A stretch of 64,000 nt of DNA from NCBI GenBank assembly GCA_929200535.1, contig CAKMZV010000001.1:45470-109469 (forward strand), written 5' to 3'. The notes under the pieces were generated by a model that had not been told where the DNA came from, did not search any database, and saw nothing but the letters and a program-made list of their open reading frames with translations. Position 1 is the first letter of the stretch. Each line of letters begins with the position of its first letter. Positions 40,417 to 58,187 of this stretch are shown here, piece after piece. The DNA comes from an uncultured Gammaproteobacteria bacterium (lineage in GTDB: Bacteria; Pseudomonadota; Gammaproteobacteria; CAKMZV01). The position numbers and the translations under genes are program-made.

Positions 40417-40421
40417 AATAT

Positions 40422-40838
40422 ATGGGAAGAATAGTAACCACAGTAAATGTTCAAAATCTGACTTCAGGAGGAAAGTCAAAGAAAATTGATGTTCTCGTTG
40501 ATACCGGAGCAAGTTATCTTACTCTTCCTTTGGCTTGGAAAGAAGATTTTGGAACATTCAATACAGAAGAAACGGTTGATTTGCAGACCGCTACTCAAGA
40601 GGTTGTGCAAGGCGTTGTGTGCGGTCCTGTCCAAATAAGGATAGAAGGTTTTAGGGCGGTTTACAATGAAGTGCTTTTTTTAGATATGAATCCTAATGGG
40701 GGTGAATATGAACCTCTACTTGGATATATTGTTTTAGAGCAGTGTGGGGTTGCCGTAGATATGATTGGACACAGATTAATTCCAGTTAAGTATATGGACC
40801 TTAAAACAGCTCTAACAAAGCACTCCAGCGGAAGCTAA
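40422..40838 (+). CDS. Retropepsin-like (clan AA) aspartic protease domain protein
   Basis: 138 aa; VLVDTGASYLTLP catalytic D-T-G-A motif, size of single-domain bacterial retropepsin-like proteins. Confidence 0.6.
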   Translation: MGRIVTTVNVQNLTSGGKSKKIDVLVDTGASYLTLPLAWKEDFGTFNTEETVDLQTATQEVVQGVVCGPVQIRIEGFRAVYNEVLFLDMNPNGGEYEPLLGYIVLEQCGVAVDMIGHRLIPVKYMDLKTALTKHSSGS

Positions 40839-40911
40839 CGCACCGCTGAGTTTGGGCGTTATACATAAATGAAAACTGAAAAATAATCTGCGAAAATCTG
40901 TGAATTAAAAA

Positions 40912-42408
40912 TCAGTTCATCGTTGGCATAGAAAACTCAATGCCCTCACGGACTCCAGCAGAAGGCCAACGTTGGGTGATTGTTTTGCGTTTGGTATAAA
41001 AACGTACTGAGTCTGGACCATAAGCGTGTAAATCACCAAAAAGCGAGCGTTTCCAACCGCCAAAACTGTGATAGGCAACGGGTACTGGTAAAGGAACATT
41101 AATGCCGACCATACCAACTTGTATATGATCAGAAAAATAGCGTGCTGCCTCTCCATCACGAGTAAAAATACAGGTGCCATTGCCATATTCGTGGGCATCA
41201 ATTAAATCCATTGCCTCTTGCATTGTTTTGACTCTGATAACTTGTAGGACTGGTCCAAAAATTTCTTCTTTATAACTGCTCATATCCGCAGTCACATTAT
41301 CAAGCAGTGTGCCGCCAACATAAAAACCATCTTCATAGCCTTTAACTTTAGGATTTCTACCATCAACGACCACCGTTGCCCCTTGTTTTTCGGCACTCTC
41401 AATATAGCCCTCAACTTTTTCTTGATGTTGTTTTGTAATCACTGGACCAAAGTCATTGCTACTGTCACTAAAGGCTCCAACTTTGAGATCGCTCATTCCT
41501 GTAGCCAGTTTTTCAACTAATAAATTAGCAACCGCATCGCCTACTGCAACCACAACCGATAAAGCCATACAACGTTCGCCCGAGGAGCCAAAGGCAGCAC
41601 CAAGCAATTGATTGACCGCATTATCAACATCCGCATCCGGCATTACTATCGCATGATTTTTTGCCCCACCCAGAGCTTGCACGCGCTTACCATTGGCATT
41701 TGCTTGAGTATAAATATATTCGGCAATAGGGGTTGAGCCCACAAAACTGACCGCCTTAATTCGAGCATCCGATAATAAAGTATCGACTGCCACTTTATCA
41801 CCATTGACGACATTCATCACTCCATCAGGTAAGCCTGCTTGTTTTAATAAATCGGCAATAAACAAGGCTGCACTTGGATCTCTCTCAGAAGGTTTTAGAA
41901 TAAAACAATTGCCACAAACAATTGCCATTGGGAACATCCATAGGGGAACCATCGCTGGAAAGTTAAAGGGCGTAATTCCGGCAACAACACCCAGAGGTTG
42001 AAATTCACTCCATGAGTCAATATTTGGACCAACATTTTTGCTATGCTCTCCCTTTAATAGCTCGGGTGCTCCACAGGCATATTCAACATTTTCAATACCG
42101 CGCTGTAATTCCCCCATTGCATCGTGGGCAATTTTGCCATGCTCTTCACCAATTAATTGACAAATTTTTTCAGCATTTTTTTCCAATAGTTCTTTGTAGC
42201 GAAACATCACTCTCGCTCTTTTAATAGCAGGCGTATTACGCCAAGCAGGATAGGCTGCTTGGGCATAAGTAATCGCTTGTTCAACAAGCTCTTTAGAGGC
42301 TAATAAAACCTCTTTTTCTGCTTGCCCAGTTGTTGGGTTATATACCGCTTGTGTACGATCATTATTCGTACATATCTCACCATTAATAAAATGCCCGATA
42401 GTTTTCAT
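40912..42408 (-). CDS. mmsA: Methylmalonate-semialdehyde / malonate-semialdehyde dehydrogenase (CoA-acylating)
   Basis: 498 aa aldehyde dehydrogenase; MmsA-type catalytic segment GERCMALS; clustered with pyrimidine reductive catabolism genes. Confidence 0.8.
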   Translation of the reverse strand: MKTIGHFINGEICTNNDRTQAVYNPTTGQAEKEVLLASKELVEQAITYAQAAYPAWRNTPAIKRARVMFRYKELLEKNAEKICQLIGEEHGKIAHDAMGELQRGIENVEYACGAPELLKGEHSKNVGPNIDSWSEFQPLGVVAGITPFNFPAMVPLWMFPMAIVCGNCFILKPSERDPSAALFIADLLKQAGLPDGVMNVVNGDKVAVDTLLSDARIKAVSFVGSTPIAEYIYTQANANGKRVQALGGAKNHAIVMPDADVDNAVNQLLGAAFGSSGERCMALSVVVAVGDAVANLLVEKLATGMSDLKVGAFSDSSNDFGPVITKQHQEKVEGYIESAEKQGATVVVDGRNPKVKGYEDGFYVGGTLLDNVTADMSSYKEEIFGPVLQVIRVKTMQEAMDLIDAHEYGNGTCIFTRDGEAARYFSDHIQVGMVGINVPLPVPVAYHSFGGWKRSLFGDLHAYGPDSVRFYTKRKTITQRWPSAGVREGIEFSMPTMN

Positions 42409-42449
42409 AAATCCTCTTTATCGTTTTACAATATAAAATTTTCAATCTT

Positions 42450-43736
42450 TCACTCAATATTTTTGCTTTTGAAATCGACCTCGAAAGTGTTGCCATTTAA
42501 GTTCAAATGGCTCACTAATGGCTTGGCTTTTGCCACTATTTCACCAAATCGAAAAACATACAGCCTAATTGCCTTAAGGCGAATAGCTTCGATTGAGTCT
42601 GATGCCTGTAGAATAATTATATTTGCATCGTTGCCTTTTTGTATGCCATAGCCATCAAGTTGCATTACTTTTGCCGAATGGGTTGTGATTGTTTCATACA
42701 TATAACGCATTTCTTCAAGAGCGGTCATCTGTTGGCTATGAATTGCCATATTTGCTACCGCAAGCATATCATGAGAGCCTAAACTATACCAAGGGTCCAT
42801 CACGCAATCATGCCCAAGAGAAACATTAATATCAAAATCACGCATCTCACGGATTCTCGTCATACCTCTTCTTTTAGGGTAGTTGTCATGGCGACCTTGC
42901 AAAGAAATATTGATCAAAGGATTGGCAACAACATTAACATCTGCCTCAGCCATAAGCGGTAATAATTTACTCACATAGTAGTTATCCATAGAGTGCATTG
43001 AAGTCAAATGCGAGCCAGTAACTCGACCTTGTAATCCCAGACGATGTGTTTCATAGGTTAGGGCTTCAATATGTCGTGAAAGCGGGTCATCGGATTCATC
43101 ACAATGCATATCAACCAACAACCCTCTATCAGCAGCCAATTCACATAATGTGGTAATGGAGCGAGTTCCTTCACTCATCGTGCGTTCAAAATGTGGAATC
43201 CCACCTACCACTTCAACCCCCATATCTATCGCCTTAAGCAAATTTTTCTCTGCACCTTCTGAGCGATACAATCCATCTTGAGGAAAGGCAACTAATTGTA
43301 AAGTGAGCCAAGGAGCTATTTCTTTTTTAACTTCTAACAATGCCTCAACGGTAATTAATCTTGAGTCGGTAATATCGACGTGGCTACGAATCGCTTGAAT
43401 GCCTTGAGCTATTGACCATCGGCACATAGCCAACGCTCTTTTTTTTACCTCTTCGGCTGTTAACAAAGGGCGTAATTCACCCCAAAGTTGAATGCCTTCT
43501 AATAGAGTACCACTCTCATTCATCCGTGGATTGCCCAGACTTAAGGCGGCATCTAAATGAAAATGAGTATCAATAAATGGGGGAGAAATTAAACAGCCTT
43601 TGGCATCTATCGTTTGTCTTGAATTAATTTTTAATTCCTTACCAATTTCGACTATTTTTCCTTTATCAATCGCTATATCGATTTGTTGTTGCCCATCAAT
43701 TAAATTGCCCTGGCGAATAATTGTGTCTATCGTCAT
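42450..43736 (-). CDS. Cytosine deaminase-like amidohydrolase (CodA family)
   Basis: 428 aa; metal-binding PFIDTHFHLD motif, amidohydrolase fold, CodA-like length. Confidence 0.65.
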   Translation of the reverse strand: MTIDTIIRQGNLIDGQQQIDIAIDKGKIVEIGKELKINSRQTIDAKGCLISPPFIDTHFHLDAALSLGNPRMNESGTLLEGIQLWGELRPLLTAEEVKKRALAMCRWSIAQGIQAIRSHVDITDSRLITVEALLEVKKEIAPWLTLQLVAFPQDGLYRSEGAEKNLLKAIDMGVEVVGGIPHFERTMSEGTRSITTLCELAADRGLLVDMHCDESDDPLSRHIEALTYETHRLGLQGRVTGSHLTSMHSMDNYYVSKLLPLMAEADVNVVANPLINISLQGRHDNYPKRRGMTRIREMRDFDINVSLGHDCVMDPWYSLGSHDMLAVANMAIHSQQMTALEEMRYMYETITTHSAKVMQLDGYGIQKGNDANIIILQASDSIEAIRLKAIRLYVFRFGEIVAKAKPLVSHLNLNGNTFEVDFKSKNIE

Positions 43737-44716
43737 ATTCTTTCTCCTTTTCTAAAGGGTACCAATAATGCTCTCGGATAACGAGCCTTTCGAGCAACAA
43801 TAATCATTGCCACAATGGACATAATATAGGGTAGCATTAGGAAAAATTGATAAGGGATAACATCGCCACTAAATTGTTGCACGCGCACCTGTAACGCTTC
43901 GAGACCGGCAAAAATAAAAGCTCCAAATAATGCTTTACCTGGTTTCCAAGAGGCAAAAATAACGAGTGCTACGGCAATCCATCCGCGACCATTAATCATC
44001 CCAAAATAAAAGGCATCAAAAGCAGACATCGTTAAAAACGCACCACCAACTGCCATAAATCCACTACCAATCATTACCGCAAATGTACGCACTCGCAAAA
44101 CATTAATTCCTTGAGCCTCCACTGCCACCGGACATTCCCCTGCCATCCTAACCGCAAGCCCAGCTGGAGTACGATAAAGAACGTACCACACAATCGGTAC
44201 CAGCAATAAGGCGAAATAGGTAAGCGGTGTTTGATTGAATAATGCCTCACCAAACACCGGGATTTCCGCAAGAAAGGGAATAGCGTAATTCTCAAATGGA
44301 ACAATTTTTGGTGGCGTAGTAGCCGAGGGCAATAACAAGCGATAAGCATAGTAGCTCAAGGAGGCTGCAAATAGTGTAATGCCTATTCCTGTTACGTGCT
44401 GTGATAATCCAGCATAGACTGTAAAACAACTATGAATAAAGCCAAAAACAGCACCGATGAAAAAGGCAAAAAGAACGCCTGTCCATAAATCACCACCTTG
44501 GTAAACCCACATCCAACCGCACATAGCCCCCATTGTCATAATCCCCTCAATACCAAGGTTTAATACGCCGGCACGCTCGCAAATTAACTCACCCAAAGTA
44601 GCTAAAATTAATGGACTCACAATCCGAATAGTGGCAGCCCAAAATCCAGTCGTTAATAAAAGTTCTAATATTTCCATCTTATTTAAAACGAAGACGATAT
44701 TGGGTAAACATAACAC
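43733..44716 (-). CDS. ABC transporter permease (BMP/nucleoside-type, NupQ-like)
   Basis: 327 aa polytopic permease, overlapping start/stop with neighbouring permease. Confidence 0.8.
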   Translation of the reverse strand: MLCLPNIVFVLNKMEILELLLTTGFWAATIRIVSPLILATLGELICERAGVLNLGIEGIMTMGAMCGWMWVYQGGDLWTGVLFAFFIGAVFGFIHSCFTVYAGLSQHVTGIGITLFAASLSYYAYRLLLPSATTPPKIVPFENYAIPFLAEIPVFGEALFNQTPLTYFALLLVPIVWYVLYRTPAGLAVRMAGECPVAVEAQGINVLRVRTFAVMIGSGFMAVGGAFLTMSAFDAFYFGMINGRGWIAVALVIFASWKPGKALFGAFIFAGLEALQVRVQQFSGDVIPYQFFLMLPYIMSIVAMIIVARKARYPRALLVPFRKGERI

Positions 44717-45728
44717 TCACTAACACACATAATACCGAAACACCAACAATAACATCTGCCAAATAGGCAGGAATATTTAATACTCGACTCATTGAATCTG
44801 CCCCCACATACACTACCGATATAAAAAATGCCGAAATAACAACACCTATTGGATTGAGCTGAGCTAACATCGCAACCACTATTCCCGTATAGCCAAACCC
44901 TGGCGATAAATCTAAGGTAAGATAGCCCTTTAAACCGGCAACTTCACTCACCCCTGCAAGCCCTGCCAATCCACCACTAATAAGCGAAACTTTGATGATT
45001 GTCATATTCACAGGAATACCAAAAAAATTAGAGGCTTGTAGGTTTAAACCGACGGCACGACTGGCATAACCAAAGGTAGTAAAACGCATTACTATCCACG
45101 TAATAACGGCGGCAATCAATGCAAATATGAGCCCCAAATGTACTCTGCTTTTTTCAAACAGGGGTGGAAATACTCCCTCGTCAATAATTGAGGCTGTTTG
45201 TGGCCAGCCCAACGAAGCAGGGTCTTTCATTGGTCCTTCAATAAGATAGCTGACCATCAATAAAACAATAAAGTTTAATAGTAAGGTGGTAACCACCTCA
45301 TCAACTTTTAAATGTGTCTTAAGTAGGACCGGAACAATAAGAAGCAACCCACCTGCTATTACCCCACAAAGCATCAGTAATGGAATCATCGCTATGGGTG
45401 GCAAGGTAATCATCCCACTACCAATATAAACGGCTGCCAAGGCCCCACAATACAATTGCCCTTCACACCCTATATTATAAAATTTTGACCTAAAGGCTAC
45501 TGCCACTGCTAAGCCAGTAAAAATAAGCGGAATGGAGCGACTCAATGTTTCCATAATGGCAAAGCGTGAACCTAAGCCACCATTAAGTAATGCCCCGTAA
45601 GCCGTGAATACTGGGGCGTCTGCCCAAATGATTAATACTGAACAGAGCGATAATGCAACAATCATTGCAAATAATGGTGCAAACAACACTAACCAAAACG
45701 GGGTATTTGTTCTAACTTCTAATTGCAT
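44679..45728 (-). CDS. ABC transporter permease (BMP/nucleoside-type, NupP-like)
   Basis: 349 aa polytopic permease. Confidence 0.8.
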   Translation of the reverse strand: MQLEVRTNTPFWLVLFAPLFAMIVALSLCSVLIIWADAPVFTAYGALLNGGLGSRFAIMETLSRSIPLIFTGLAVAVAFRSKFYNIGCEGQLYCGALAAVYIGSGMITLPPIAMIPLLMLCGVIAGGLLLIVPVLLKTHLKVDEVVTTLLLNFIVLLMVSYLIEGPMKDPASLGWPQTASIIDEGVFPPLFEKSRVHLGLIFALIAAVITWIVMRFTTFGYASRAVGLNLQASNFFGIPVNMTIIKVSLISGGLAGLAGVSEVAGLKGYLTLDLSPGFGYTGIVVAMLAQLNPIGVVISAFFISVVYVGADSMSRVLNIPAYLADVIVGVSVLCVLVSVMFTQYRLRFK

Positions 45729-45740
45729 ATTTTAAACTTT

Positions 45741-47270
45741 TTAATTTATGGAGGTATTATCGGTACCTAATTGCCCTGCCATCATCAAACCAATCTCCGA
45801 AATGCTTTTTGACTCGGCTTTAAATACCTTGCTAATGTAGCCATCACACATCACCATTAAATCATCACACATCGTTAATAACTCATCTATGTCGGTAGAA
45901 ATTAACAATATACCAGCACCTCTATTGCGTGCGTCCATTAATTGGGTTTGTACATAAGCTATTGAACCCTCATCCAATCCTCGAACCGGTTGATTGGCAA
46001 CAATAAACCCAGGATTTTGAGTAAGAGTTCGTGCTAAAATCAATTTTTGAATGTTTCCACCCGATAATAAATTAGCCTGTGCATTGGTGCCTGAACAACG
46101 TATATCAAAATCATCAATCAATTGCTCACTGTGTTGGATTGCAGATTTTTTATCGATGCAACAACCAAAATGTGTCATCTGATTTAGACTTAACCTTTCA
46201 CCAATGAGATTTTCCCATAGTTTCATTTCCCCAACAATGCCTTCAGTATGGCGATCTTCAGGAATACGGGCAACCCCTTGGCGTATCATAGATAGTGGAC
46301 TGTTTTTTTCTATTGTATTACCAAACAAATTCATCGTCCCAGAGTTATGTTGTATCATACCCGATAACAAACGGGCTAATTGTAACTGACCATTTCCTGA
46401 AACGCCGACAATACCAAGAATTTGGTGCGAACGAACTTGTAAGGTTATATTATGTAATTGCACCGAGCTTTCACCTTTTTCCCCAACGGTTGAAATATTG
46501 TCAAGCTCGACAACAATATCGCCGTATTGCTGATTTTTTTTGCTCGGATAACTCACCTTGTGCCCAACCATCATCTCACTGAGGATATTTTTATCCGCTT
46601 CTTTTGTCAGCACCTCTCCCACTAATTTACCTCTTCTTAACACTGCCACACGATCGGTAACAGAAAGAATTTCGTGGAGTTTATGAGTAATAAAAATAAT
46701 GGTAAGCCCCTTTTTTGATAAATCTTTAAGGGATGAAAAAAGCTTTTCTGTTTCTTGAGGAGTTAAGACTGCCGTGGGTTCATCGAGGATTAAGATTTTC
46801 ACATCTCGATAAATTGCCTTAAGAATTTCGACTCGTTGACGCTCACCAACCGTCAATTCACTCACTTGTTTTTGAGCATCAATTTCTAAACCAAACTCAT
46901 GAGATAGGTTCTCAAGGCGTTTGCTTGCTTTTGCTCTATCTTGTCGCCATGCGAATAGACTTTCTGTGCCAAGCACAATATTTTCCATAACGCTAAGATT
47001 ATCTGCCAGCGTAAAATGTTGGTGAACCATACCAATTCCAGCGTTGATTGCTGCCTCAGTATGGTTCGGTAAAATTTCACCATTGACCTTTATCCAACCT
47101 TCATCAGCCGAGTAATGACCAAATAAGATATTCATTAATGTGGTTTTGCCAGCTCCGTTTTCACCTAACAAAGCAACTATCTCACCCGCATCAAGAGCGA
47201 GTGAGATATTCTCATTAGCTAACAAGTTGCCAAAACGCTTGCTAATATTATTAAGTTCAAGTACTGGCAC
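45741..47270 (-). CDS. ABC transporter ATP-binding protein, duplicated ATPase (sugar/nucleoside type)
   Basis: 509 aa with two ABC cassettes (GENGAGKTT ... and second domain GVSGNGQ). Confidence 0.85.
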   Translation of the reverse strand: MPVLELNNISKRFGNLLANENISLALDAGEIVALLGENGAGKTTLMNILFGHYSADEGWIKVNGEILPNHTEAAINAGIGMVHQHFTLADNLSVMENIVLGTESLFAWRQDRAKASKRLENLSHEFGLEIDAQKQVSELTVGERQRVEILKAIYRDVKILILDEPTAVLTPQETEKLFSSLKDLSKKGLTIIFITHKLHEILSVTDRVAVLRRGKLVGEVLTKEADKNILSEMMVGHKVSYPSKKNQQYGDIVVELDNISTVGEKGESSVQLHNITLQVRSHQILGIVGVSGNGQLQLARLLSGMIQHNSGTMNLFGNTIEKNSPLSMIRQGVARIPEDRHTEGIVGEMKLWENLIGERLSLNQMTHFGCCIDKKSAIQHSEQLIDDFDIRCSGTNAQANLLSGGNIQKLILARTLTQNPGFIVANQPVRGLDEGSIAYVQTQLMDARNRGAGILLISTDIDELLTMCDDLMVMCDGYISKVFKAESKSISEIGLMMAGQLGTDNTSIN

Positions 47271-47287
47271 AAGACGATAAATTTATA

Positions 47288-47325
47288 TAAAGACTATCTC
47301 CCACGTAGGAGCGTGGGAGCAAGAA
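47288..47325. repeat. REP-like hairpin (tctcccacgtaggagcgtgggagcaagaag)
   Basis: Inverted repeat ctcccacg/cgtgggag around taggag; same family as 22905-22945; sits between SBP gene and ABC ATPase gene. Confidence 0.5.
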
Positions 47326-47345
47326 GGTAAAAAAAACATCCATTA

Positions 47346-48347
47346 TTAGTAAGTTGATTTAGGTTGCTCGTCATTAATATTGACCACAAACTTGCCACTT
47401 AAAATTTCTTTTTCAAGTTGCTTTACTTTCTTCTTAACCGCTGGTGCAATTTTATTTTCAAACTCATAATAAGGAGCCAAAGACGCACCTCCTTTTTGCA
47501 TCATTGTCCATTCCTTATAATTCTCAGCCTTGTAAGTTCCTGCTTTAACTTGCTCAATAGCATAGTCAATAGCATTATACATATGCCATAATGCAGAGGT
47601 TACAACAACATCCTTGCCATTTTCTTCTTTGTTCATATCATTCACATTACCAAAAGCAAGAACCCCTTTAGTTCTGGCAGCATCAACTACGCCAGCACGC
47701 TCGGCATAAAGGACATCAACCCCTGCCTCAATTTGTGCAAAAGCGGCTTCTTTCGCTTTAGGTGGGTCAAACCAAGAACCAATAAAAGTAACTTTAAATT
47801 CCGTCTTAGGGTTAGAAGCGCGCGCACCCTCTATAAAAGAATGAAATAAACGATTTACCTCACCAATGGGATAGCCACCGACCATTCCTATTTTATTGCT
47901 TTTAGTCATAGAGCCTGCAATATACCCCATCAAGTAAGTAGCCTCATGAATATAGTTATCAAAAACCGAAAAGTTCTTGCCATGAGGTTTGAATGGATCG
48001 CCCATAAGAAAAGCAACTTTAGGATAATCATCCGCTACCTTACGAGCTTCTTTACTTATACCAAAGGCCTCTCCAACAACAAGCTGTACTCCGCTCTCAG
48101 CATATTCACGGAGAACACGAACATAGTCAGTATTAGGCACTTTTTCCGAAAAAACATACTCAATTTTCCCGTCTTTTTCAGCCTTTACTAACGCCTCATG
48201 CAAACGAGCATCCCATTTTTGTTGAATAGGTTGCGTATAAATACCGGCAACCTTAATTTTTCCCGCAAAAACAGACGGCACCAATCCCATAAACGCAACA
48301 AATGAGACTAACAACATTACTACTTTTTTTACTATTGATATTTTCAT
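47346..48347 (-). CDS. BMP-family ABC transporter substrate-binding lipoprotein (nucleoside-binding, PnrA/Med-like)
   Basis: 333 aa, signal peptide, BMP family fold motifs (GxxDxxF, VGEAFG). Confidence 0.8.
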   Translation of the reverse strand: MKISIVKKVVMLLVSFVAFMGLVPSVFAGKIKVAGIYTQPIQQKWDARLHEALVKAEKDGKIEYVFSEKVPNTDYVRVLREYAESGVQLVVGEAFGISKEARKVADDYPKVAFLMGDPFKPHGKNFSVFDNYIHEATYLMGYIAGSMTKSNKIGMVGGYPIGEVNRLFHSFIEGARASNPKTEFKVTFIGSWFDPPKAKEAAFAQIEAGVDVLYAERAGVVDAARTKGVLAFGNVNDMNKEENGKDVVVTSALWHMYNAIDYAIEQVKAGTYKAENYKEWTMMQKGGASLAPYYEFENKIAPAVKKKVKQLEKEILSGKFVVNINDEQPKSTY

Positions 48348-48387
48348 ACTACTCTCCTATAAATTAAAAGCAAAACAATAAAAAGGT

Positions 48388-49830
48388 TTACTTATTGACC
48401 CTATTTAAAATAACATAAATAACTGCCCCTATAAGAAAACCAGTAAACCAACCATAATCATATAAGCCTCTTAACAAATTACCTTGGTCTTGAAAAGTAC
48501 CAAGTATTGCCAAAATGACTGGCACTCCCCAAGCAATAATCCCATTAAGATTGTATCCACTATGAACTCCTTGAGATTTATAAAGAGATGTAACTTCAAG
48601 TTCTTGCTTTTTGACAATGAAAAAATCAGCTATCATAATTCCAGCAACTGGACCAAGTAGGCTGGAGTAGCCCAATAACCAATTAGCATATCTTCCTTCA
48701 AGACCATCGCCACTCACAATACCAGCAACACGCATTAAGTCCCATGCCATCAATAAAATACCAACGAGACCCGTCATTAATACACCTCTGCGTCTGTCAA
48801 TCAATTTTGCTGATATATTTTGAAAATCATTGGTTGGTGAAACAATGTTGGCAGCGGTATTGGTAGAAATAGTCGCAAGGATAATCATTATCATTAAGAT
48901 AACAACCACAAATCCACTTTCGAGTTTTCCAATCAACGTCACTGGATCTGCAATCGCTTCACCAAATATACTCACGCTCGCACCAGTCATAATAACACCA
49001 AGAGCAGAGAATAAAAACATAGTCACCGGTAGCCCAATAATTTGCCCGTGTATTTGTGCTTTTTGGCTTTCAGCGAAGCGACTAAAATCAGGTATATTGA
49101 GTGCTAATGTTGCCCAAAATCCGACCATCGCCGTTAGAGCAGCAAAGAAATACCCAAAAAAACCAGCATCTTCAGGACGATTAGCTGGAGCTCCAAAAAC
49201 CTGCCCTAAATCAGCAACACTACTCCCCCAGTAAAGTAAAACCGCACTAACAATTAGTAACAGTGGAGCAGACACTGTCTCTAATATCTTGATTGACTCA
49301 GAACCTTTTAAAACCACATAAATATTTAATGTCCAAAATATAAAAAAACCAATCACCTGACCATAACCGCCAAGGTTTTCCCAACCAGGGATGAGGTTAT
49401 CAAAAAGAATATCTATCGCAAGACCACCAAACATTGTTTGAATTCCAAACCAACCACAGGCGACAACTGCCCGTACTAAAGCAGGAATATTAGAGCCTTT
49501 TATGCCAAATGATGATCTCAGCAAGACTGGAAACGGTATTCCATACTTTGTTCCTGGAATAGCATTTAGGCAAAGTGGTATCAACACAACGACATTTGCT
49601 ATAAATATCGTAAATAATGCCTCCATAACACTTAACCCAAAATAGGCTGTTAATATGCCACCCAATGTGTAGGTAGGAATACAAATAGACATACCAACCC
49701 ACAAAGAGGCGATATGCCATTTATTCCAAGTTCGTTGCTTTAATGTCGTTGGAGCAAGGTCTTCATTAAATCCCGGTTCATTTTTAATCTCCTCAATAGA
49801 GTTCAACTCATGTATATCTTCTTGCATCAT
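48388..49830 (-). CDS. NCS1-family nucleobase:cation symporter (cytosine/uracil/hydantoin/allantoin permease type)
   Basis: 480 aa, 12 TM, NCS1 signature region near TM1 (NKWHIASLWVGM). Confidence 0.8.
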   Translation of the reverse strand: MMQEDIHELNSIEEIKNEPGFNEDLAPTTLKQRTWNKWHIASLWVGMSICIPTYTLGGILTAYFGLSVMEALFTIFIANVVVLIPLCLNAIPGTKYGIPFPVLLRSSFGIKGSNIPALVRAVVACGWFGIQTMFGGLAIDILFDNLIPGWENLGGYGQVIGFFIFWTLNIYVVLKGSESIKILETVSAPLLLIVSAVLLYWGSSVADLGQVFGAPANRPEDAGFFGYFFAALTAMVGFWATLALNIPDFSRFAESQKAQIHGQIIGLPVTMFLFSALGVIMTGASVSIFGEAIADPVTLIGKLESGFVVVILMIMIILATISTNTAANIVSPTNDFQNISAKLIDRRRGVLMTGLVGILLMAWDLMRVAGIVSGDGLEGRYANWLLGYSSLLGPVAGIMIADFFIVKKQELEVTSLYKSQGVHSGYNLNGIIAWGVPVILAILGTFQDQGNLLRGLYDYGWFTGFLIGAVIYVILNRVNK

Positions 49831-49926
49831 TGCTTCTCCTTAACTTTATGTTAATAATAAAATCACTCTCAAATACTAAAAAATACTACCTCTTAAAATA
49901 TGGTCCGTCTAAAAAAGCCTAAAAAT

Positions 49927-51225
49927 TTAACTAACTTTAGCCGGATTATTAGGATGAGTCGTCCAATCAGAATGTGTATTTACTATCGGTTTACCTGTTC
50001 TCAAATCAACTCCCTCAGTTTGAGCAACCATAGTAATACAATTTTCAACAGGACAAACGCTCACACATAAATTACAACCCACACACTCCTCCTCAATGAC
50101 TTCAAAAAATCGAACACCATCTTTTTCTTTAGTAATTGCTTGGTGAGAAGTGTCTTCGCAAGCAATATGACAACGGCCACACTTTATGCAGGCATCTTGA
50201 TCAATTACCGCTTTATCAATATGATTTAAATTAAGATTTTTCCAATCAGTTACCGAAGGAACCGCACGACCCACCAAATCATTTACTGAGGCAATCCCTT
50301 TTTCATCAAGAAAGCCACTTAATCCACTTTTAAGCTCATCAACAATACGAAATCCATATACCATTGCAGCGGTGCAGACCTGAACCGTCGTTGAACCAAG
50401 TGTTATAAACTCAACAGCATCCTTCCAAGAACTAATCCCACCAATGCCTGAAATGGGCAATCCACTTGTTTTCTTATTGCGAGCAATTTCGGCAACCATA
50501 TTAAGTGCAATCGGTTTTACCGCTTCGCCACAATAACCACCATGACTACCCATACCACCTGTATTAGGATACATATTAAAGGTATCGAGATCAACTCCCA
50601 TAATGGAATTTATCGTGTTGATTAGCGAAACCGCATCGGCTTTCCCCTCTAAGGCGGCTTCCGCTATCGGTACCACATTGGTCACGTTCGGAGTTAGTTT
50701 AACGATGACTGGAAGAGAGGTTGCTTTTTTGCAAAACTCGGTACATAGTCGGACATATTCTGGCACTTGACCAACTGCAGAGCCCATTCCTCTTTCAGAC
50801 ATTCCATGCGGACAACCAAAATTTAATTCAAAACCATCTACGCCTGCTTTTTCCATTTCTGGAATCAATTCAAGCCAATATTTTTCTTCCATAGGAAACA
50901 TTGCTGAACCTATGATTACTCTATCTGGCCAATTTTTTTTAACTTGCTCAATTTCCCTAATGTTCGTCTCAAAAGAACGATCTGAGATTAATTCAATATT
51001 ATTAAAGCCAATAACCCGTCTTTCATTGCTAAGTTTAGAAGAATAACGAGGTCCATTAACATTAACAACAGGTGGGTTAACACCCAAAGTTTTCCAAACA
51101 ACTCCACCCCATCCCGCCTCAAAGGCTCTTTCGACATTGTATGCCTTATCCGTTGGTGGAGCCGATGCTAACCAAAATGGATTGGGCGACTGAATACCTA
51201 AAAAATTTGTTGTTAAATCTGCCAT
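49927..51225 (-). CDS. preA: NAD-dependent dihydropyrimidine dehydrogenase subunit PreA (DHOD-like TIM barrel plus 2x[4Fe-4S])
   Basis: 432 aa; dihydroorotate-dehydrogenase-like domain then CIKCGRCHIACED and CVGCNLCVSVCP ferredoxin motifs. Confidence 0.85.
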   Translation of the reverse strand: MADLTTNFLGIQSPNPFWLASAPPTDKAYNVERAFEAGWGGVVWKTLGVNPPVVNVNGPRYSSKLSNERRVIGFNNIELISDRSFETNIREIEQVKKNWPDRVIIGSAMFPMEEKYWLELIPEMEKAGVDGFELNFGCPHGMSERGMGSAVGQVPEYVRLCTEFCKKATSLPVIVKLTPNVTNVVPIAEAALEGKADAVSLINTINSIMGVDLDTFNMYPNTGGMGSHGGYCGEAVKPIALNMVAEIARNKKTSGLPISGIGGISSWKDAVEFITLGSTTVQVCTAAMVYGFRIVDELKSGLSGFLDEKGIASVNDLVGRAVPSVTDWKNLNLNHIDKAVIDQDACIKCGRCHIACEDTSHQAITKEKDGVRFFEVIEEECVGCNLCVSVCPVENCITMVAQTEGVDLRTGKPIVNTHSDWTTHPNNPAKVS

Positions 51226-51242
51226 TTTATTCCTCTCTTCTT

Positions 51243-52595
51243 TTACCCGTTAATTGATTGGTGAATGTCTCTTGCCGCTATCTTACCATCTTCTACTGCT
51301 GCCACTACTAAATCGTAGCCATTATCAATGCAATCACCTCCTGCCCATACACCCTCACTCGAAGTACGCCGATTAATATCAACAACGATCTTGGCTCGAT
51401 CACACTGTAATTGGTTAATTCCATCAACCTCATTATCAAGTAGCTGACCTACCGCTTTAAATAGACTATCAGTTTGCATTGTGTGCATTTTCCCAGTTCC
51501 TTTTAACTCTCCTTCTGCAAGTTTAGTTTCCTCAATCACTATTTCAGATACGGCATTATTATTAGTCACAATTTGCGAAATTTTTGACCAAAAATGAATA
51601 TCAACACCATTGGTTTGTGCAAACTTGCGTTCGACATCGCTTGCTCCCATTTCATCAGGACCACGACGGTAAATAATAGCAACTCGTTTGGCTCCTAAGC
51701 GTTTGCTTTGTACGGCAATATCTATGGCAGTCATCCCACCGCCAATAACAACTACATTGTCTCCAACAGAAAGATTTTTAAGATCGTCGCTTTGTCTTAG
51801 CACCGAAATATAATCTACTGCATCTTGAATACCATCGGCACATTCATTTTCAAGATCAAGAGCACGCACGCCTGCCAACCCTACGGCAAGAAAAACGGCA
51901 TCAAAATCCTTTTGTAAATTGCCCAAGGTTAGGTCACGACCTAATGCCATACCCGTTTTTATCTCTATGCCACCCAAATCCATAATATATTGAATTTCTT
52001 TTTGGGCAAAGTCATCAACTGTTTTATAAGCAGCAATACCATACTCATTTAAGCCTCCTGCTTTATTTTTATCCTCAAAAACAGTCACACTATTGCCAAG
52101 CATCGAGAGTTGGTGGGCACAAGCCATTCCAGCAGGTCCTGCACCAACTACGGCAATTTTCTTGCCCGTGTCGGCTTGTCGTTCAAATAATTGTTTTCCT
52201 GTGGACTGCACCGAATCAGTCGCATATCGTTGCAATAAGCCAATTGCTACTGGTTTATCTTCGTGAGTATTTCTAACGCAATCTCCTTCACAGAGGTTTT
52301 CTGTGGGGCAAACTCGTGCACACATTCCACCCATAATATTGGAATCAAGAATTGTCTTAGCTGCTCCGGAGGTATCTTTTGTATAAATTTGACGAATAAA
52401 TAATGGAATATCAATACTCGTCGGGCATGCTGCTGTACATGGAGCATCGTAACAGTAGTAGCATCTATCAGCTTCAATGCCAACCGTTGTATCCGTTAAA
52501 GGTGGATGTATATCCGCAAAATTATCCTCTAACTGTTTGGCTGAAAGCGTGCTATCCGATTGAGGATGAATTACAACATTATCATTTGTTCTCAT
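51243..52595 (-). CDS. preT: Dihydropyrimidine dehydrogenase subunit PreT (GltD-like NAD(P)H oxidoreductase)
   Basis: 450 aa; N-terminal Cys cluster, two Rossmann motifs (VVGAGPAGMACA; VVVIGGGMTAID). Confidence 0.85.
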   Translation of the reverse strand: MRTNDNVVIHPQSDSTLSAKQLEDNFADIHPPLTDTTVGIEADRCYYCYDAPCTAACPTSIDIPLFIRQIYTKDTSGAAKTILDSNIMGGMCARVCPTENLCEGDCVRNTHEDKPVAIGLLQRYATDSVQSTGKQLFERQADTGKKIAVVGAGPAGMACAHQLSMLGNSVTVFEDKNKAGGLNEYGIAAYKTVDDFAQKEIQYIMDLGGIEIKTGMALGRDLTLGNLQKDFDAVFLAVGLAGVRALDLENECADGIQDAVDYISVLRQSDDLKNLSVGDNVVVIGGGMTAIDIAVQSKRLGAKRVAIIYRRGPDEMGASDVERKFAQTNGVDIHFWSKISQIVTNNNAVSEIVIEETKLAEGELKGTGKMHTMQTDSLFKAVGQLLDNEVDGINQLQCDRAKIVVDINRRTSSEGVWAGGDCIDNGYDLVVAAVEDGKIAARDIHQSING

Positions 52596-52626
52596 TAGCT
52601 TCTTGCTCCTAATTTAATTATTCAAA

Positions 52627-54223
<1,597 letters not shown>

Positions 54224-54259
54224 TTAAATATGACTCTTTTATACCTTAGGCTACCTCTA

Positions 54260-55135
54260 TTAGAATTCGACTAAGTCATCATATAACTCAGGTCTGCGAT
54301 CCCGAAAGAATTGCCAAGTATCACGAACTTCCCTAATCATATCAAGATCAATCTCGTGTACTAATAACTCATCATCACCATAGCTCGCCTGTGCCTCAAT
54401 TTGCCCACGTGGGTTCACAATGTACGTAGAGCCATAGAACTCGCCCATTTTATCAGACCAAGGAGCCTCTTTACCCACTCTGTTAATTGCACCAATAAAA
54501 ACACCGTTGGCTGCAGCCGAGGCAGGTTGCTCCAATTCCCATAAATACTTGCTCAAGCCTGCAACCGTTGCAGAAGGGTTAACAATATAATCTGCTCCAT
54601 TGAGTGCCAAAGCTCTCCAACCTTCTGGGAAATGTCGGTCATAGCATATATACACACCAAGATTTAAATAGGCTGTTTGGAAAACAGGATAACCCAAATT
54701 ACCCGGCTTAAAGAAAAATTTCTCAAAAAATCCAGGTTGCACATCTGGGATATGAGTCTTACGATATTTTCCTAAAAAAGTACCATCCGCATCAATCACA
54801 GCTGCCGTATTGTAATAAACTCCCTTTATCGTTTCCTCGTAAATAGGAACAATAATAACCATATTGTGCTTCTTCGCATATTCTTGCATTAGCCGAACCG
54901 TGTAACCATCCGGAATTTGTTCAGCAGCAGCATACCATTTAGGATCTTTGCTTGGGCAAAAATAGGGTTGTGTAAATACCTCTTGAAAACATAAAACTTG
55001 AACTCCTTTTTTCGCAGCTTCATCAATATAGGGTAAATGTGCCTCAAGCATTAAATCCCGAATTTTTTCAGGACTCATTGAGCAATCGCCTTTTAACCCC
55101 ATTTGAATAAGACCACAAGTTACTTTTTTCGTCAT
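54260..55135 (-). CDS. Beta-ureidopropionase-like carbon-nitrogen hydrolase (nitrilase superfamily)
   Basis: 291 aa; CN-hydrolase E-K-C triad context (CFQE..., ...YRKTHIP, ICYDRHFPE). Confidence 0.75.
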   Translation of the reverse strand: MTKKVTCGLIQMGLKGDCSMSPEKIRDLMLEAHLPYIDEAAKKGVQVLCFQEVFTQPYFCPSKDPKWYAAAEQIPDGYTVRLMQEYAKKHNMVIIVPIYEETIKGVYYNTAAVIDADGTFLGKYRKTHIPDVQPGFFEKFFFKPGNLGYPVFQTAYLNLGVYICYDRHFPEGWRALALNGADYIVNPSATVAGLSKYLWELEQPASAAANGVFIGAINRVGKEAPWSDKMGEFYGSTYIVNPRGQIEAQASYGDDELLVHEIDLDMIREVRDTWQFFRDRRPELYDDLVEF

Positions 55136-55186
55136 TACATTTCTCCTTTTTAGTAAATTTTTTAGTTTTCTGTTATTCGATGCTTC

Positions 55187-56494
55187 CTATTTAAGTCTCA
55201 ATAATACTTCTCGCAAAATCGTACCAAGCTCATCTATATTTTCTTTTTCAAAGGGCAAAGGTGGTGATAAAGCAATAATGTCGCCCGTTGTGCGAATGAG
55301 CAAACCACTCTCAAAAGCATCAATAAACGCACTAAAGGCTCTTTTAGTTGGCATTCCCTCTATTGGCTCCAATTCAATCGCACCAATAAAACCCAGATTA
55401 CGAATATCAATCACATAAGGCAAGCCCTTGAAGCTATGTAACATCTCTTGCCAATAATGAGTAAACGATGGATCTTTAGAAAATAATTGCTCTGATTCAT
55501 ACACATCAAGACACGCCATTGCAGCTGCACATGCTACTGGGTTACCCGAATATGTATAGCCATGGAAAAACTCAATTAAATGCTCTGCTCCAGACATAAA
55601 AGCATCATAAATAAAATCCTTACAAATAACTGCTCCCATCGGCACAGTAGCATTAGTCAAGCCTTTTGCGGTTGTTACTATATCTGGAATAACTCCAAAA
55701 TAATCAACTGCAAACGGAACCCCAAGACGTCCAAAACCAGTAATCACCTCATCAAAGATAAGTAAAATACCATTTTCATCACAAATCTCACGAATACGCT
55801 CTAAATATCCTTTTGGTGGAATAAGCACTCCTGTAGAACCCGCTACAGGCTCGATAATAAGTGCGGCAATCGTTTCAGCTCCATACAAATTAATGACACG
55901 TAGTAAATCTTCCGCATATTCAGCACCATATTCAGGCATACCACGTGAAAAAGCATTACGAGAAATGTCATGGGTGTGTTTAATATGATCAACGCTTGGT
56001 AGCAAGTCACCAAAACTGTCTCTATTAGGCGGAATACCGCCAACAGAAATTCCACCAAAATTTACGCCGTGATAACCTCTTTCACGACCAATAAGGTGAA
56101 CTCTTTTTTCTTGACCTATTGCTTTTTGATATGAGACTGCTATTTTCAAAGCGGTCTCTACAGATTCTGAACCTGAATTGGTAAAAAATACCTTATTCAT
56201 ATCAGTAGGGAAATAGTTGCTCAATCGACTTGCAAGAGCAAATGCAGCTGGATGTCCCATTTGGAAAGAAGGTGCGTAATCTAAAACAGAAAGTTGTTTG
56301 CTAACTACCTCTTGAATATGAGGATGACAATGACCTGCATTTGAACACCACAACCCCGAAGTACCATCAAGGATAGTTCGACCATCCTCGCTTGTATAAT
56401 ACAAGCCGTTAGCACTAACCAACATCCTAGGCGTTTGCTTAAATTGCCTATTTGCCGTAAATGGCATCCAAAGATTTTCGAGCGTTGACTTCAT
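55187..56494 (-). CDS. Class III aminotransferase (beta-alanine/3-aminoisobutyrate:pyruvate aminotransferase-like)
   Basis: 435 aa; PLP-lysine region IPDIVTTAKGL, class III fold; in beta-alanine-producing cluster. Confidence 0.8.
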   Translation of the reverse strand: MKSTLENLWMPFTANRQFKQTPRMLVSANGLYYTSEDGRTILDGTSGLWCSNAGHCHPHIQEVVSKQLSVLDYAPSFQMGHPAAFALASRLSNYFPTDMNKVFFTNSGSESVETALKIAVSYQKAIGQEKRVHLIGRERGYHGVNFGGISVGGIPPNRDSFGDLLPSVDHIKHTHDISRNAFSRGMPEYGAEYAEDLLRVINLYGAETIAALIIEPVAGSTGVLIPPKGYLERIREICDENGILLIFDEVITGFGRLGVPFAVDYFGVIPDIVTTAKGLTNATVPMGAVICKDFIYDAFMSGAEHLIEFFHGYTYSGNPVACAAAMACLDVYESEQLFSKDPSFTHYWQEMLHSFKGLPYVIDIRNLGFIGAIELEPIEGMPTKRAFSAFIDAFESGLLIRTTGDIIALSPPLPFEKENIDELGTILREVLLRLK

Positions 56495-56566
56495 CGTAAA
56501 TTAAATCTCCTTAAAGAGTTTTTTACTTAAAAATGAGTACAGCATACTAACTTTACATTAAACCAT

Positions 56567-56625
56567 AAAGCTGACCATTTAGTCAATCAAATTGGTCAAA
56601 TAAATTTGACTAATTAGTCAGCTTT
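56567..56625. promoter_or_regulatory. Tandem RutR-box-like TetR operator palindromes upstream of pyrimidine-catabolism operon
   Basis: aaagctgaccatttagtcaatcaaattggtcaaataaatttgactaattagtcagcttt: contains CTGACCATTTAGTCAA (56571-56586) and TTGACTAATTAGTCAG (56606-56621), both close to RutR consensus TTGACCAnnTGGTCAA, embedded in a larger perfect palindrome. Confidence 0.55.
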
Positions 56626-56640
56626 ATAAAAAAAACATTC

Positions 56641-56754
56641 TGAAACCTTTGCATAAAAGTATGGCACAAAAAACGTTTTTACTCTTGGCGAGTTTACGAG
56701 CCTTAGAGTAACAGTGTTTGAACTGCTTGCAGGTAAAAGAAAAACGAAAAGCGA
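56641..56754 (-). mobile_element. MITE-like repeat, truncated copy 7 (5' half only, with the same 68-bp insertion as copy 5)
   Basis: tgaaacctttgcataaaagtatggcacaaaaaacgtttttactcttggcgagtttacgagccttagagtaacagtgtttgaactgcttgcaggtaaaagaaaaa then diverges. Confidence 0.7.
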
Positions 56755-56896
56755 AAAAGGATTAACTCTCTAAGACTGTTGCAGAATGGAAAAGGGCAAA
56801 AGAAATCACCCTATCCTTTGGGCACCTCCTCCGAGGGAGGGGAATGAGTAGAAACGTTTTGCCAAAACGTCTCTATGCTATATCTGACTACCTCTA

Positions 56897-57559
56897 CTAA
56901 TCTTCTCTTAATTCGTGAAAGACCGCACCAAGTATCAGTTTGACAACTTCGTTACGTTTATTTTTATATTCTTGTTTAGATAAACGCTTATTTTTATTAA
57001 GAACAGTGATTTGATATTCAAAATCCGCATAATGCTGGGTTGTTGCCCAAATCATATAAAGCAAAGCATTGGCATCAATATCTTTGATAATACCCTCTTG
57101 CTTCCATTTATTGATCACTCCAACACGTAAGTCAACCCATTCATTAAAGCTACTGGGGATTTTTATAAAGGTTTTTTTAGATACTCTGCCACTCACAAGA
57201 ATAAAATGTGCCCAGATTTTTGACGCATGAGGATATTCACGAGAAAAATCCATTTTTTCTTCTATGTAGCTCTTGAGTATCATATAAGGGTCTCCAACAA
57301 GGTTAAACATTTTTCCTTCCTGTAGCCAATCATCAAGAATGGTTTCAATAACTATTTGATATAACTCTGCCTTCGTTTGCACATAGTAAAGAACCGTTGA
57401 TTTAGGTAATTTTGCTTCTTCGGCAATCATACTCATCGTCGCCCCTTTATATCCATTTAAAGCAAAAATTTTCTCAGCAGCTTTATATATTTTTTTGCTT
57501 CGTATTTTACGTTTTTTAAATCGTTCAATCGTCATTTTTACGCTAAGAAATTCAGTCAA
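56897..57559 (-). CDS. TetR-family transcriptional regulator (RutR-like)
   Basis: 220 aa; N-terminal TetR HTH (AAEKIFALNGYKGATMSMIAEEAKLPKSTVLYY), flanks pyrimidine catabolic genes. Confidence 0.75.
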   Translation of the reverse strand: MTEFLSVKMTIERFKKRKIRSKKIYKAAEKIFALNGYKGATMSMIAEEAKLPKSTVLYYVQTKAELYQIVIETILDDWLQEGKMFNLVGDPYMILKSYIEEKMDFSREYPHASKIWAHFILVSGRVSKKTFIKIPSSFNEWVDLRVGVINKWKQEGIIKDIDANALLYMIWATTQHYADFEYQITVLNKNKRLSKQEYKNKRNEVVKLILGAVFHELRED

Positions 57560-57606
57560 TAGTAATTGCAGTCAAAGGAGTGCTGATTTTGTAACAAACT
57601 ACACTT

Positions 57607-57776
57607 TGAGACCTTTGCATAAAAGTATGGCAAAAGAAAAAAGATAAAAAATCGTTCTGATTGAGGCGTGAAATGAAGCTAATACATCCGTCTTCGCAAG
57701 TTTTATAACGAAAATTAGGGCAATTTTTTGCTTTTTTATTTGTCATATCTTTTGTGCAAAGGTCTCTTACAGCGAA
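57607..57776 (-). mobile_element. MITE-like palindromic repeat, copy 8 (orientation A)
   Basis: tgagacctttgcataaaagtatggcaaaagaaaaaagataaaaaatcgttctgattgaggcgtgaaatgaagctaatacatccgtcttcgcaagttttataacgaaaattagggcaattttttgcttttttatttgtcatatcttttgtgcaaaggtctc. Confidence 0.85.
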
Positions 57777-58176: not shown

Positions 58177-58187
58177 ATATAACCTTC

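Follow-up and report, generated by a model that had tools for sequence, protein, structure and literature searches.

The window analyzed in this work is the complete stretch of 64,000 nucleotides taken from contig CAKMZV010000001.1 (assembly GCA_929200535.1) of an uncultured gammaproteobacterium, and between its positions 40912 and 57559 it carries a gene cluster that very probably serves the catabolism of pyrimidine bases. The cluster consists of 13 open reading frames (ORFs), all co-directional on the minus strand, with outer limits that correspond exactly to these two positions in the ORF listing (Table 1). An initial sequence-only reading of the same DNA had described this co-directional gene set, which was recovered here with the limits it had given, and all 13 products matched in profile searches the enzyme and transporter families it had named. 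The observations on which the present interpretation is built are the gene content, the families recognized above curated cut-offs, the conserved catalytic and ligand-contacting residues, and the operator motifs together with their conservation across taxa.

Gene content and organization of the cluster

Neighboring genes of the cluster are mostly separated by 0-96 bp, and overlaps of 4 bp and 38 bp occur in two pairs. Longer spacings are found at two points, 170 bp from dht to preT and 402 bp from tetR to the aminotransferase gene. Gene calls from metagenomes place the start of the second permease gene at 44677 (vs the ORF end at 44716), and that of tetR at the ATG at 57535, which yields a protein of 212 amino acids (aa). 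A consensus scan for promoters and terminators displayed no promoter enrichment (51 found vs 56 expected) and shed no light on operon structure. The flanking genes have no link to the pathway: a DUF6338 gene, argG and trpE are found on one side, and a small Asp_protease_2 ORF and an ABC-2 exporter on the other. The hairpin between the binding-protein and ATPase genes is formed by one of three copies (22907-22937, 24387-24417 and 47299-47329) of a GC-rich palindrome, TCCCACG(N)CGTGGGA, designated repeat family D9, which resembles repetitive extragenic palindromes.

Table 1. Coordinates in the window of the cluster genes, operators and associated repeats (MITE, miniature inverted-repeat transposable element; ABC, ATP-binding cassette).
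Feature	Position	Strand	Basis
MITE variant downstream of the cluster	40037-40259		Alignment; 69-nt internal insert
mmsA, CoA-acylating methylmalonate/malonate-semialdehyde dehydrogenase (MmsA)	40912-42408	-	TIGR01722, 674 bits, cut-off 448
codA, cytosine deaminase	42450-43736	-	NF005748, 721 bits, cut-off 438
Two BPD_transp_2 permease genes	43733-44716 and 44679-45728	-	Pfam PF02653, 109 and 130 bits
Tandem ABC ATPase, two fused ABC domains	45741-47270	-	Pfam ABC_tran, two stretches
GC-rich hairpin between binding-protein and ATPase genes	47298-47319	-	Terminator-like, 8 pairs, 6 GC
Bmp-family ABC substrate-binding protein, nucleobase-binder subgroup	47346-48347	-	Pfam Bmp PF02608, 130 bits
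NCS1 nucleobase:cation symporter	48388-49830	-	Pfam Transp_cyt_pur PF02133, 321 bits, cut-off 23.5
preA, FMN/4Fe-4S subunit of dihydropyrimidine dehydrogenase	49927-51225	-	NF006183 equivalog, 673 bits, cut-off 335
preT, NAD(P)H/FAD subunit of dihydropyrimidine dehydrogenase	51243-52595	-	Pfam Fer4_20 (120 bits) and Pyr_redox_2
Complete 159-bp MITE at the dht-preT junction, in the dht 3' end	52638-52796		Inverted-repeat arms 52638-52680 and 52754-52796
dht, dihydropyrimidinase (PydB)	52766-54205	-	TIGR02033, 584 bits, cut-off 393, residues 7-461
Nitrilase-superfamily beta-ureidopropionase (predicted PydC)	54260-55135	-	Pfam CN_hydrolase, 209 bits
aptA, beta-alanine:pyruvate (omega-amino acid) transaminase, AptA/BauA type	55187-56494	-	NF052567, 698 bits, cut-off 500
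Two RutR-type operator palindromes	56571-56621	-	Pattern search
Truncated MITE fragment between tetR and the operators	56637-56750		Left end only in alignment
tetR, RutR/PydR-like TetR-family regulator	56897-57559	-	Pfam TetR_N, 36 bits, and TetR_C_3 (YcdC-like), 129 bits
Complete MITE about 50-75 bp upstream of tetR	57608-57766		Inverted-repeat arms 57608-57650 and 57724-57766

Catabolic enzymes

Curated NCBIfam cut-offs were passed by the methylmalonate-semialdehyde dehydrogenase, the cytosine deaminase, PreA, the dihydropyrimidinase and AptA, and the match of the dihydropyrimidinase to TIGR02033 covers its full length. PreT is encoded 17 bp upstream of preA, and this pairing was kept in 80/80 alphaproteobacterial preA loci, which comprise the best genome matches to PreA and whose neighbors were counted within 10 kb. 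The amidohydrolase is a bona fide CodA and not an isoaspartyl dipeptidase, the identity that the sequence-only reading had named beforehand as contrary to its proposal: besides passing NF005748 (721/438), it matches E. coli CodA (1K6W) with an E value of 1e-109 and conserves the metal-binding and catalytic residues, namely the equivalents of HxH, H214/E217, H246, D313 and Q156. Its gene overlaps the last permease gene by 4 bp. The transaminase has as its best match in the PDB the beta-alanine:pyruvate transaminase of Pseudomonas aeruginosa (4B98, E 3e-133), with the next group at 1e-83, and among enzymes consuming malonic semialdehyde MmsA corresponds to the dehydrogenase variant (malonic semialdehyde dehydrogenase, MSDH), not to PydE.

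By sequence, the CN hydrolase has the least secure assignment, and we infer from its gene context that it is PydC. Its best PDB matches are the human and Drosophila beta-ureidopropionases (E 1e-55), and the Glu-Lys-Glu-Cys catalytic set is intact in the alignment to human residues E119, K196, E207 and C233. Orthologues with 83-86% identity are abundant in marine Gammaproteobacteria, where in every context examined (contigs L091-L094 and L099) they are encoded by the first gene before a pyrimidine-type transporter, dihydropyrimidinase, PreT and PreA; four of these contexts, in which the orthologue stands at the head of a PydB-PreT-PreA cluster, are independent. The enzyme is taken as PydC because its orthologues head pyd clusters in all these contexts. 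Alphaproteobacterial loci carry an M20 amidohydrolase at the equivalent slot, as is the case in Stappia, which indicates that the slot is that of PydC. No NCBIfam equivalog model covers this highly conserved bacterial PydC clade, and near-identical proteins are publicly named 'acyltransferase', 'N-carbamoylputrescine amidase', 'nitrilase-related' or 'beta-ureidopropionase'.

Regulator and operators

The TetR-family regulator has E. coli RutR (3LOC) as its best PDB match (E 6e-27), and residues L74, W77, L78 and W167, demonstrated by mutagenesis to bind uracil in RutR (PMC4325133), are all identical in the alignment. Two candidate operator boxes were found upstream of the transaminase gene, TTGACTAATTAGTCAG (56606-56621) and TTGACTAAATGGTCAG (56571-56586). 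The pattern TGACNANNTNGTCA, which matches the E. coli RutR consensus TTGACCAnnTGGTCAA (PMC2475637), occurs twice in the window, both times at these operators, vs 0.03 occurrences expected. Further, the second box overlaps a candidate -35 element, TTGACT (56586-56581), with TTTAAT (56562-56557) after a spacer of 18 nt, a promoter that was read by eye.

The boxes recur in related loci. A sister species (see below) carries TTGACCAAATAGTCAA and TTGACTACTCAGTCGA in the same intergenic region, and the core GACYAnnTRGTC is found before the first pyd gene in the gammaproteobacterial contigs L092, L094 and L099, as well as before preT and aptA in Stappia, Kiloniella and Maritalea. Judged by their sequence, the conserved boxes are a phylogenetic footprint of a repressor that would be relieved by uracil, as for RutR and Pseudomonas putida PydR. 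The window protein has several features in common with both of these regulators, namely the TetR_C_3 fold family, all four residues that contact uracil and a palindromic operator of 16 bp of the TTGACCAnnTGGTCAA type, and like PydR it is placed at a reductive (Pyd) cluster and not at the Rut pathway. Its profile scores indicate that it is RutR-like and not a RutR equivalog.

Importers and their probable substrates

Two transport systems are encoded in the cluster. The NCS1 protein scores just under the cut-off of TIGR00800 (327 vs 353 bits) and has Mhp1 as its best PDB match (E 8e-32). A 58%-identical counterpart lies between PydC and PydB in contig L091, and the NCS1 protein PA0443, encoded in the pyd region of P. 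aeruginosa, is a broad pyrimidine transporter (PMC11633122). The window protein is probably a permease for uracil, thymine and dihydropyrimidines.

The second system combines a Bmp-fold binding protein (PF02608), two BPD_transp_2 permeases (PF02653) and a tandem ATPase (ABC_tran, twice), and is named a 'nucleoside' or 'B6' transporter in public records. Its binding protein is much closer to AtzT (6PI5, E 3e-34) and to the adenine-bound Brucella Bmp protein 3S99 (E 3e-32) than to PnrA (2FQW, 2e-7) or BmpD (6e-6), and AtzT binds guanine and adenine as free bases (PMC6834077). In the window protein, W45, W192 and E163 are the equivalents of the two aromatic residues that stack on the base and of the hydrogen-bonding Glu165 in these closest solved relatives. 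Conversely, the AtzT residues that read the purine (Ser97, Asn169, Asn218 and Asn220) are replaced here and the genomic partner is a cytosine deaminase, so the specificity is probably different. A CodA homologue follows the permeases directly in 30 of the 37 metagenomic loci that encode a binding protein 67-82% identical to that of the window and contain enough downstream DNA to be counted. The five-gene unit Bmp-ATPase-permease-permease-CodA stands alone in Kiloniella majae and in another contig (L095 and L096). Profile searches of the cluster products revealed no nucleosidase, phosphorylase or cytidine deaminase.

Because of the similarity to base binders, the co-inheritance with CodA, and the lack of a nucleosidase or phosphorylase in the cluster, cytosine or a close analogue appears the likeliest substrate of the ABC system, over nucleosides. 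Accordingly, the 'nucleoside' label that the sequence-only reading had attached to this system is doubtful on the same three grounds. More generally, and only tentatively, the five-gene unit may represent a widespread, uncharacterized module of marine Alpha- and Gammaproteobacteria whose binding protein would specifically recognize cytosine or a different pyrimidine base. In that case, the Bmp family, whose members known to date bind nucleosides and purine bases, would gain its first member specific for pyrimidine bases, and the CodB symporter would have an alternative of the ABC type; our literature search found no report of a Bmp-type cytosine transporter.

Transposable elements in and around the cluster

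The window contains eight copies or fragments of a MITE family of approximately 159 bp, with 43-nt terminal inverted repeats (GAGACCTTTGCATAAAAGTATGG...) and no ORF. In addition to the three complete copies in Table 1, others are found at 14240-14413, 17449-17622, 20861-21034 and 21388-21561, and the 5-bp target duplications observed were AAGTT, AGATT, GGTTT and ATTAT. Two MITEs had been reported as embedded in the cluster: the one placed at 52627 is indeed a complete copy (52638-52796), while at about 56641 just the 5' half of a truncated copy is present, with a single inverted repeat and the 69-nt variant insert. The copies at 40037-40259 and 57608-57766, which bracket the cluster, had not been reported.

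The copy at 52638-52796 is flanked by a GGTTT duplication and is absent in the sister species, where the gap between dht and preT is 24 bp. As a consequence of the insertion, the dihydropyrimidinase reads ...AYYK and then takes its last 10 codons and stop from the MITE, the displaced original tail (KPLNN-stop) standing after the target duplication; in the sister species, the enzyme has the C-terminus RPPFPSHFKSS-stop, which lies 24 bp ahead of preT. The catalytic domain is untouched, since the match to the family profile stops at residue 461 out of 479. As RNA, this MITE folds into a hairpin of -57.2 kcal/mol (z = -7.9) without a U tract, which might affect processing or read-through into preT.

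The truncated fragment (56637-56750) and positions 40032-40145 constitute a 114-nt direct repeat, 96% identical, formed by a MITE end and the 69-nt insert. These repeats bracket 16.6 kb with 12 of the 13 cluster genes, and recombination between them could delete the cluster. We also considered them as the ends of a mobile unit that had brought the cluster, but in the sister species the cluster occupies the same site and the repeats are missing, so this idea was rejected. The copy at 40037-40259 is missing in strain variants (L085 and L090, 99.7% identity), where the site is cleanly empty and ATTAT forms a 5-bp overlap; since this copy is polymorphic between strains, the family has been active recently. 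In the same co-occurring strains, the mmsA region (40265-42457) is 97.3% identical, vs 99.7% for the rest of the cluster, and a stretch of some 37 bp separating codA from mmsA (42421-42457) is missing, which looks like a recombination tract. At the opposite end, tetR and argG are spaced about 1.3 kb apart (57560-58867), with a MITE and the DUF6338 gene (58188-58757) in between. This segment is an insertion next to the regulator promoter, since in the sister species argG and tetR are only 141 bp apart.

Conservation and distribution of the arrangement

Two contigs of the sister species (L097 and L098, approximately 77% nucleotide identity) carry the cluster at the same place beside argG, in the order argG-tetR-aptA-cnh-dht-preT-preA-ncs1-bmp-atp-perm-perm-codA followed by the start of mmsA, collinear with the window. 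Identity is 75-78% in the cluster and 78% in the flanking argG. Because the cluster has diverged as much as argG, it has been inherited vertically since the split of both species and, being collinear as well, maintained by selection since then.

Beyond the sister species, the gene content recurs in other combinations. The unrelated contig L099 has almost the same genes and encodes PydC, an NMT1-type ABC system, PydB, PreT, PreA, a DMT protein, the Bmp-type ABC system, CodA and a RutR-like TetR. Eight metagenomic loci present the Bmp-type ABC system, CodA, the aminotransferase, MmsA (73-74% identical where reached) and the CN hydrolase (79-86%) in another order. Among the 80 alphaproteobacterial preA loci, a TetR regulator was found in 66, dht in 54, aptA in 30 and mmsA in 12; no CN hydrolase, CodA, Bmp protein or NCS1 gene was found within the same 10 kb. 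The sequence-only reading had regarded so complete a cluster as uncommon in one locus, which is not borne out in view of the sister species, of L099, of the eight metagenomic loci and of the links of preTA with aptA and mmsA that are common in marine Alphaproteobacteria; PydD and MSDH also figure in published diagrams of Pyd clusters (PMC7332683). The cluster is one permutation of recurring modules, and an ordinary, well-preserved example of a type common in marine bacteria.

A nucleoside-fed variant is encoded in L091 (ERZ25072999, a circular contig of 3.49 Mb), whose positions 10001-20384 hold genes for the CN hydrolase, NCS1, dihydropyrimidinase, PreT, PreA and cytidine deaminase and, divergently, for a nucleoside hydrolase, a CNT nucleoside transporter and a pyrimidine-nucleoside phosphorylase.

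None of 185,579 species-representative genomes carries the cluster, and their best PreA matches are 67-70% identical. The exact sequence of the window is limited to a handful of metagenome scaffolds, including scaffold_1 of ERZ23492265 (123 kb), which is 100% identical over the 21.3 kb compared. The 80 best genome matches to PreA are all alphaproteobacterial (67-70%), and a recent horizontal acquisition from Alphaproteobacteria was therefore considered; this idea was weakened because gammaproteobacterial contigs are closer (preA 72-73%; dht 73-76% vs 53-56%) and because the cluster diverged in step with argG. A mosaic ancestry of the modules is likely, the binding protein being 81% identical to that of Kiloniella.

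Proposed pathway and alternative explanations

We propose, with a probability of roughly 85%, that the locus is a uracil-responsive cluster for the catabolism of pyrimidine bases in an uncultured marine gammaproteobacterium; the substrates, the co-transcription and the repression logic are the parts of this proposal that we infer from the observations above. Uracil, thymine or dihydropyrimidines would be taken up by the NCS1 permease, while cytosine (or a close analogue) would most likely enter through the Bmp-type ABC system, to be deaminated to uracil by the translationally coupled CodA. Uracil would then be reduced by PreT/PreA to dihydrouracil, whose ring would be opened by the dihydropyrimidinase to N-carbamoyl-beta-alanine, and from this compound the nitrilase-type amidase would release beta-alanine, NH3 and CO2. 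The AptA/BauA-type transaminase would transfer the last nitrogen to pyruvate, producing alanine and malonate semialdehyde, which MmsA would convert to acetyl-CoA; thymine would follow identical steps with propionyl-CoA as the end product. When uracil is absent, the RutR-like repressor would occupy the two operators overlapping the candidate promoter before the transaminase gene; in the presence of uracil it would be released, and the 12 genes from aptA to mmsA would probably be transcribed as one long transcript or a few. With its complete reductive pathway, CodA, terminal transaminase and MmsA steps, two importers and TetR regulator, this scheme is essentially the functional one of the sequence-only reading, which is now backed by curated-threshold matches, conserved residues, operators and cross-taxon synteny.

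Several observations weigh against the proposal, in whole or in part. In the profile search no equivalog model scored above its cut-off with PreT, and the regulator lies below the RutR equivalog cut-offs (TIGR03613, 121 vs 368 bits; NF011584, 111 vs 230). The assignment of PydC relies on context, since by sequence an N-carbamoylputrescine amidase fits nearly as well: the plant enzyme 5H8I matches with E 3e-53, nearly equal to 1e-55. Operators were found upstream of aptA only, and because of this, control of preTA and of the transporter genes would depend on read-through across the MITE hairpin of -57 kcal/mol. AtzT binds cytosine and uracil weakly (Kd 0.8-1.6 mM; PMC6834077), and this, together with the replaced purine contacts, leaves the cytosine ligand a prediction. 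Finally, the organism is known from metagenome contigs alone.

The alternatives differ in how much of the cluster they would reinterpret. For the ABC system, a nucleoside importer, as in the sequence-only reading, would require that cytidine and uridine be cleaved by enzymes encoded elsewhere before feeding CodA and PreTA. The Bmp family is defined by the nucleoside binders PnrA and BmpD (PMC7093131), and the neighbors of the pyd cluster in L091 (nucleoside hydrolase, CNT transporter, cytidine deaminase and pyrimidine-nucleoside phosphorylase) indicate that nucleoside-fed pyd clusters exist; however, the window protein lies nearer to base binders, none of the cleaving enzymes is encoded in its cluster, and the conserved partner of the system deaminates a base, which makes nucleoside import rather unlikely, although not far-fetched. 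The CN hydrolase could instead be an N-carbamoylputrescine amidase of polyamine synthesis, which would leave the cluster without a PydC of its own. Its best NCBIfam match is aguB (TIGR03381), the proximity of 5H8I to the beta-ureidopropionases points the same way, and sources at NCBI and JGI include this name; yet the aguB score of 240 bits is far under the cut-off of 410, no agmatine deiminase gene is adjacent, the close orthologues always come first in PydB-PreT-PreA clusters and are named beta-ureidopropionase by other sources, and the equivalent alphaproteobacterial slot holds an M20 amidohydrolase. We consider a role in polyamine synthesis very improbable.

Two further explanations concern the cluster as a whole. 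Its products might process hydantoins or N-carbamoyl-D-amino acids, as in the 'hydantoinase process' with its Mhp1-like permease, D-hydantoinase and D-carbamoylase: the hydantoin permease Mhp1 is the only solved relative of the NCS1 protein, TIGR02033 is named D-hydantoinase/dihydropyrimidinase, and D-carbamoylases belong to the CN hydrolases. Nevertheless, D-carbamoylases score E 1e-25 vs 1e-55 for beta-ureidopropionases, and hydantoin processing has no use for PreTA, CodA, the beta-alanine:pyruvate transaminase, MmsA or a regulator whose pocket is of the uracil type, so that this explanation is scarcely credible. Alternatively, the genes could serve pyrimidine homeostasis, salvage or the supply of beta-alanine (pantothenate) and not nutrient catabolism, given that E. 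coli PreTA stands outside any degradative pathway (PMC7332683) and that the degradation of uracil can provide beta-alanine for making pantothenate (PMC7142369). However, the cluster encodes a transaminase and MmsA, which destroy beta-alanine, along with two importers and a repressor of the uracil type, a combination that fits catabolism induced by its substrate, and a homeostatic or biosynthetic role is quite improbable.

Read as a catabolic cluster, the locus would be a clean, apparently fully intact example of how a cell obtains both the carbon skeleton and all three nitrogens of cytosine, uracil or thymine. The locus shows that marine Gammaproteobacteria build this capacity from recurring modules: a PydC-PydB-PreTA core, a Bmp-ABC-CodA unit, an AptA-MmsA pair and a RutR-type repressor with a conserved operator. 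The cluster opens no new biological question. It has practical value as an annotation reference for the names of the CN hydrolase and the ABC system, and it provides a lead to a possible cytosine-specific ABC importer.

Host and other features of the window

The window has a GC content of about 38% and also encodes hflK/hflC-hisZ-purA, tolA/tolB, dsbC, putA and a type II/IV secretion ATPase; its BipA is approximately 75% identical to those of Candidatus Thioglobus and other Gammaproteobacteria. A low-GC Firmicute host had been considered in view of the 38% GC and the Bacillus/Lysinibacillus literature on Pyd, and was ruled out by this gene content and the BipA similarity. No HIP1 (GCGATCGC) sites, a cyanobacterial marker, are present in the window. 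On these sequence features, the host is treated as an uncultured marine gammaproteobacterium.

Away from the cluster, positions 23126-24247 encode a beta-propeller protein of 373 aa, composed of Kelch repeats, whose gene is internally repetitive; eukaryote-like proteins of this repeat type are frequent in host-associated bacteria. The region 4000-8000 has a low GC content (30-32% vs about 38%), and its genes include one for a HerA/DUF87-type ATPase (4039-5754) and an ORF of 390 aa that lacks annotation (5766-6938). Next to these stand two tRNA genes (7356-7439 and 7747-7820), and the region may be an integrated island or serve defence. Three genes at 14404-17380, with GATase, GXGXG and Glu_synthase domains, resemble a glutamate synthase of the split, archaeal type and are flanked by the MITEs at 14240 and 17449.

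Comparison with known systems

Extended Pyd clusters have been described in Bacillus smithii, Lysinibacillus and other bacteria, where PydABC is accompanied by PydD and by PydE or MSDH, as drawn in Fig. 1C of PMC7332683, which cites Yin et al. (2019, J Biol Chem 294:15662). As depicted there, these clusters share with the window the addition of a beta-alanine aminotransferase and a consumer of malonic semialdehyde to PydABC, by which the last nitrogen is released. They differ in that the window has a gammaproteobacterial host, a pyruvate-dependent transaminase of the AptA/BauA type, and MSDH and not the reductase PydE, and in that CodA, two importers and a RutR-like regulator are added.

In Stappia stellulata (L001) and other marine Alphaproteobacteria, the genes preT, preA, a divergent RutR-like tetR, aptA, mmsA, an amidohydrolase and dht follow one another in this order and, in the former, RutR-type boxes likewise precede preT and aptA. 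The PydC of Stappia belongs to the M20 peptidase family, unlike the predicted one of the window, and CodA, the Bmp-type ABC system and NCS1 are lacking within 10 kb. Closer to the window is the marine gammaproteobacterial contig L099/L092 from the SHIN18-1 samples, which presents the CN hydrolase (85% identity to the window), an ABC importer, PydB (dht, 73%), PreT, PreA (73%), the Bmp-type ABC system (binding protein, 73%), CodA (60%) and a RutR-like TetR in this order, also with a RutR-type box before the first gene. It differs in that NCS1 is replaced by an NMT1-type ABC system plus a DMT protein and that the regulator lies at the far end, and on the part recovered neither aptA nor mmsA was seen.

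A comparable association occurs in P. aeruginosa, whose region PA0437-PA0444 we take to comprise codA, codB, the two-subunit dihydropyrimidine dehydrogenase, dht, the NCS1 gene PA0443 and a beta-ureidopropionase gene, with bauABCD presumably located separately. Assuming this order for strain PAO1, both systems place a cytosine deaminase and an importer beside the reductive genes, with NCS1 inside the cluster, and P. aeruginosa BauA (4B98) is also the closest solved relative of the window transaminase. In the window, however, cytosine uptake would proceed through a Bmp-type ABC system and not through CodB, the predicted PydC is of the nitrilase type and not of the M20 type, and the BauA-like and BauC-like genes lie within the same locus as the rest of the pathway.

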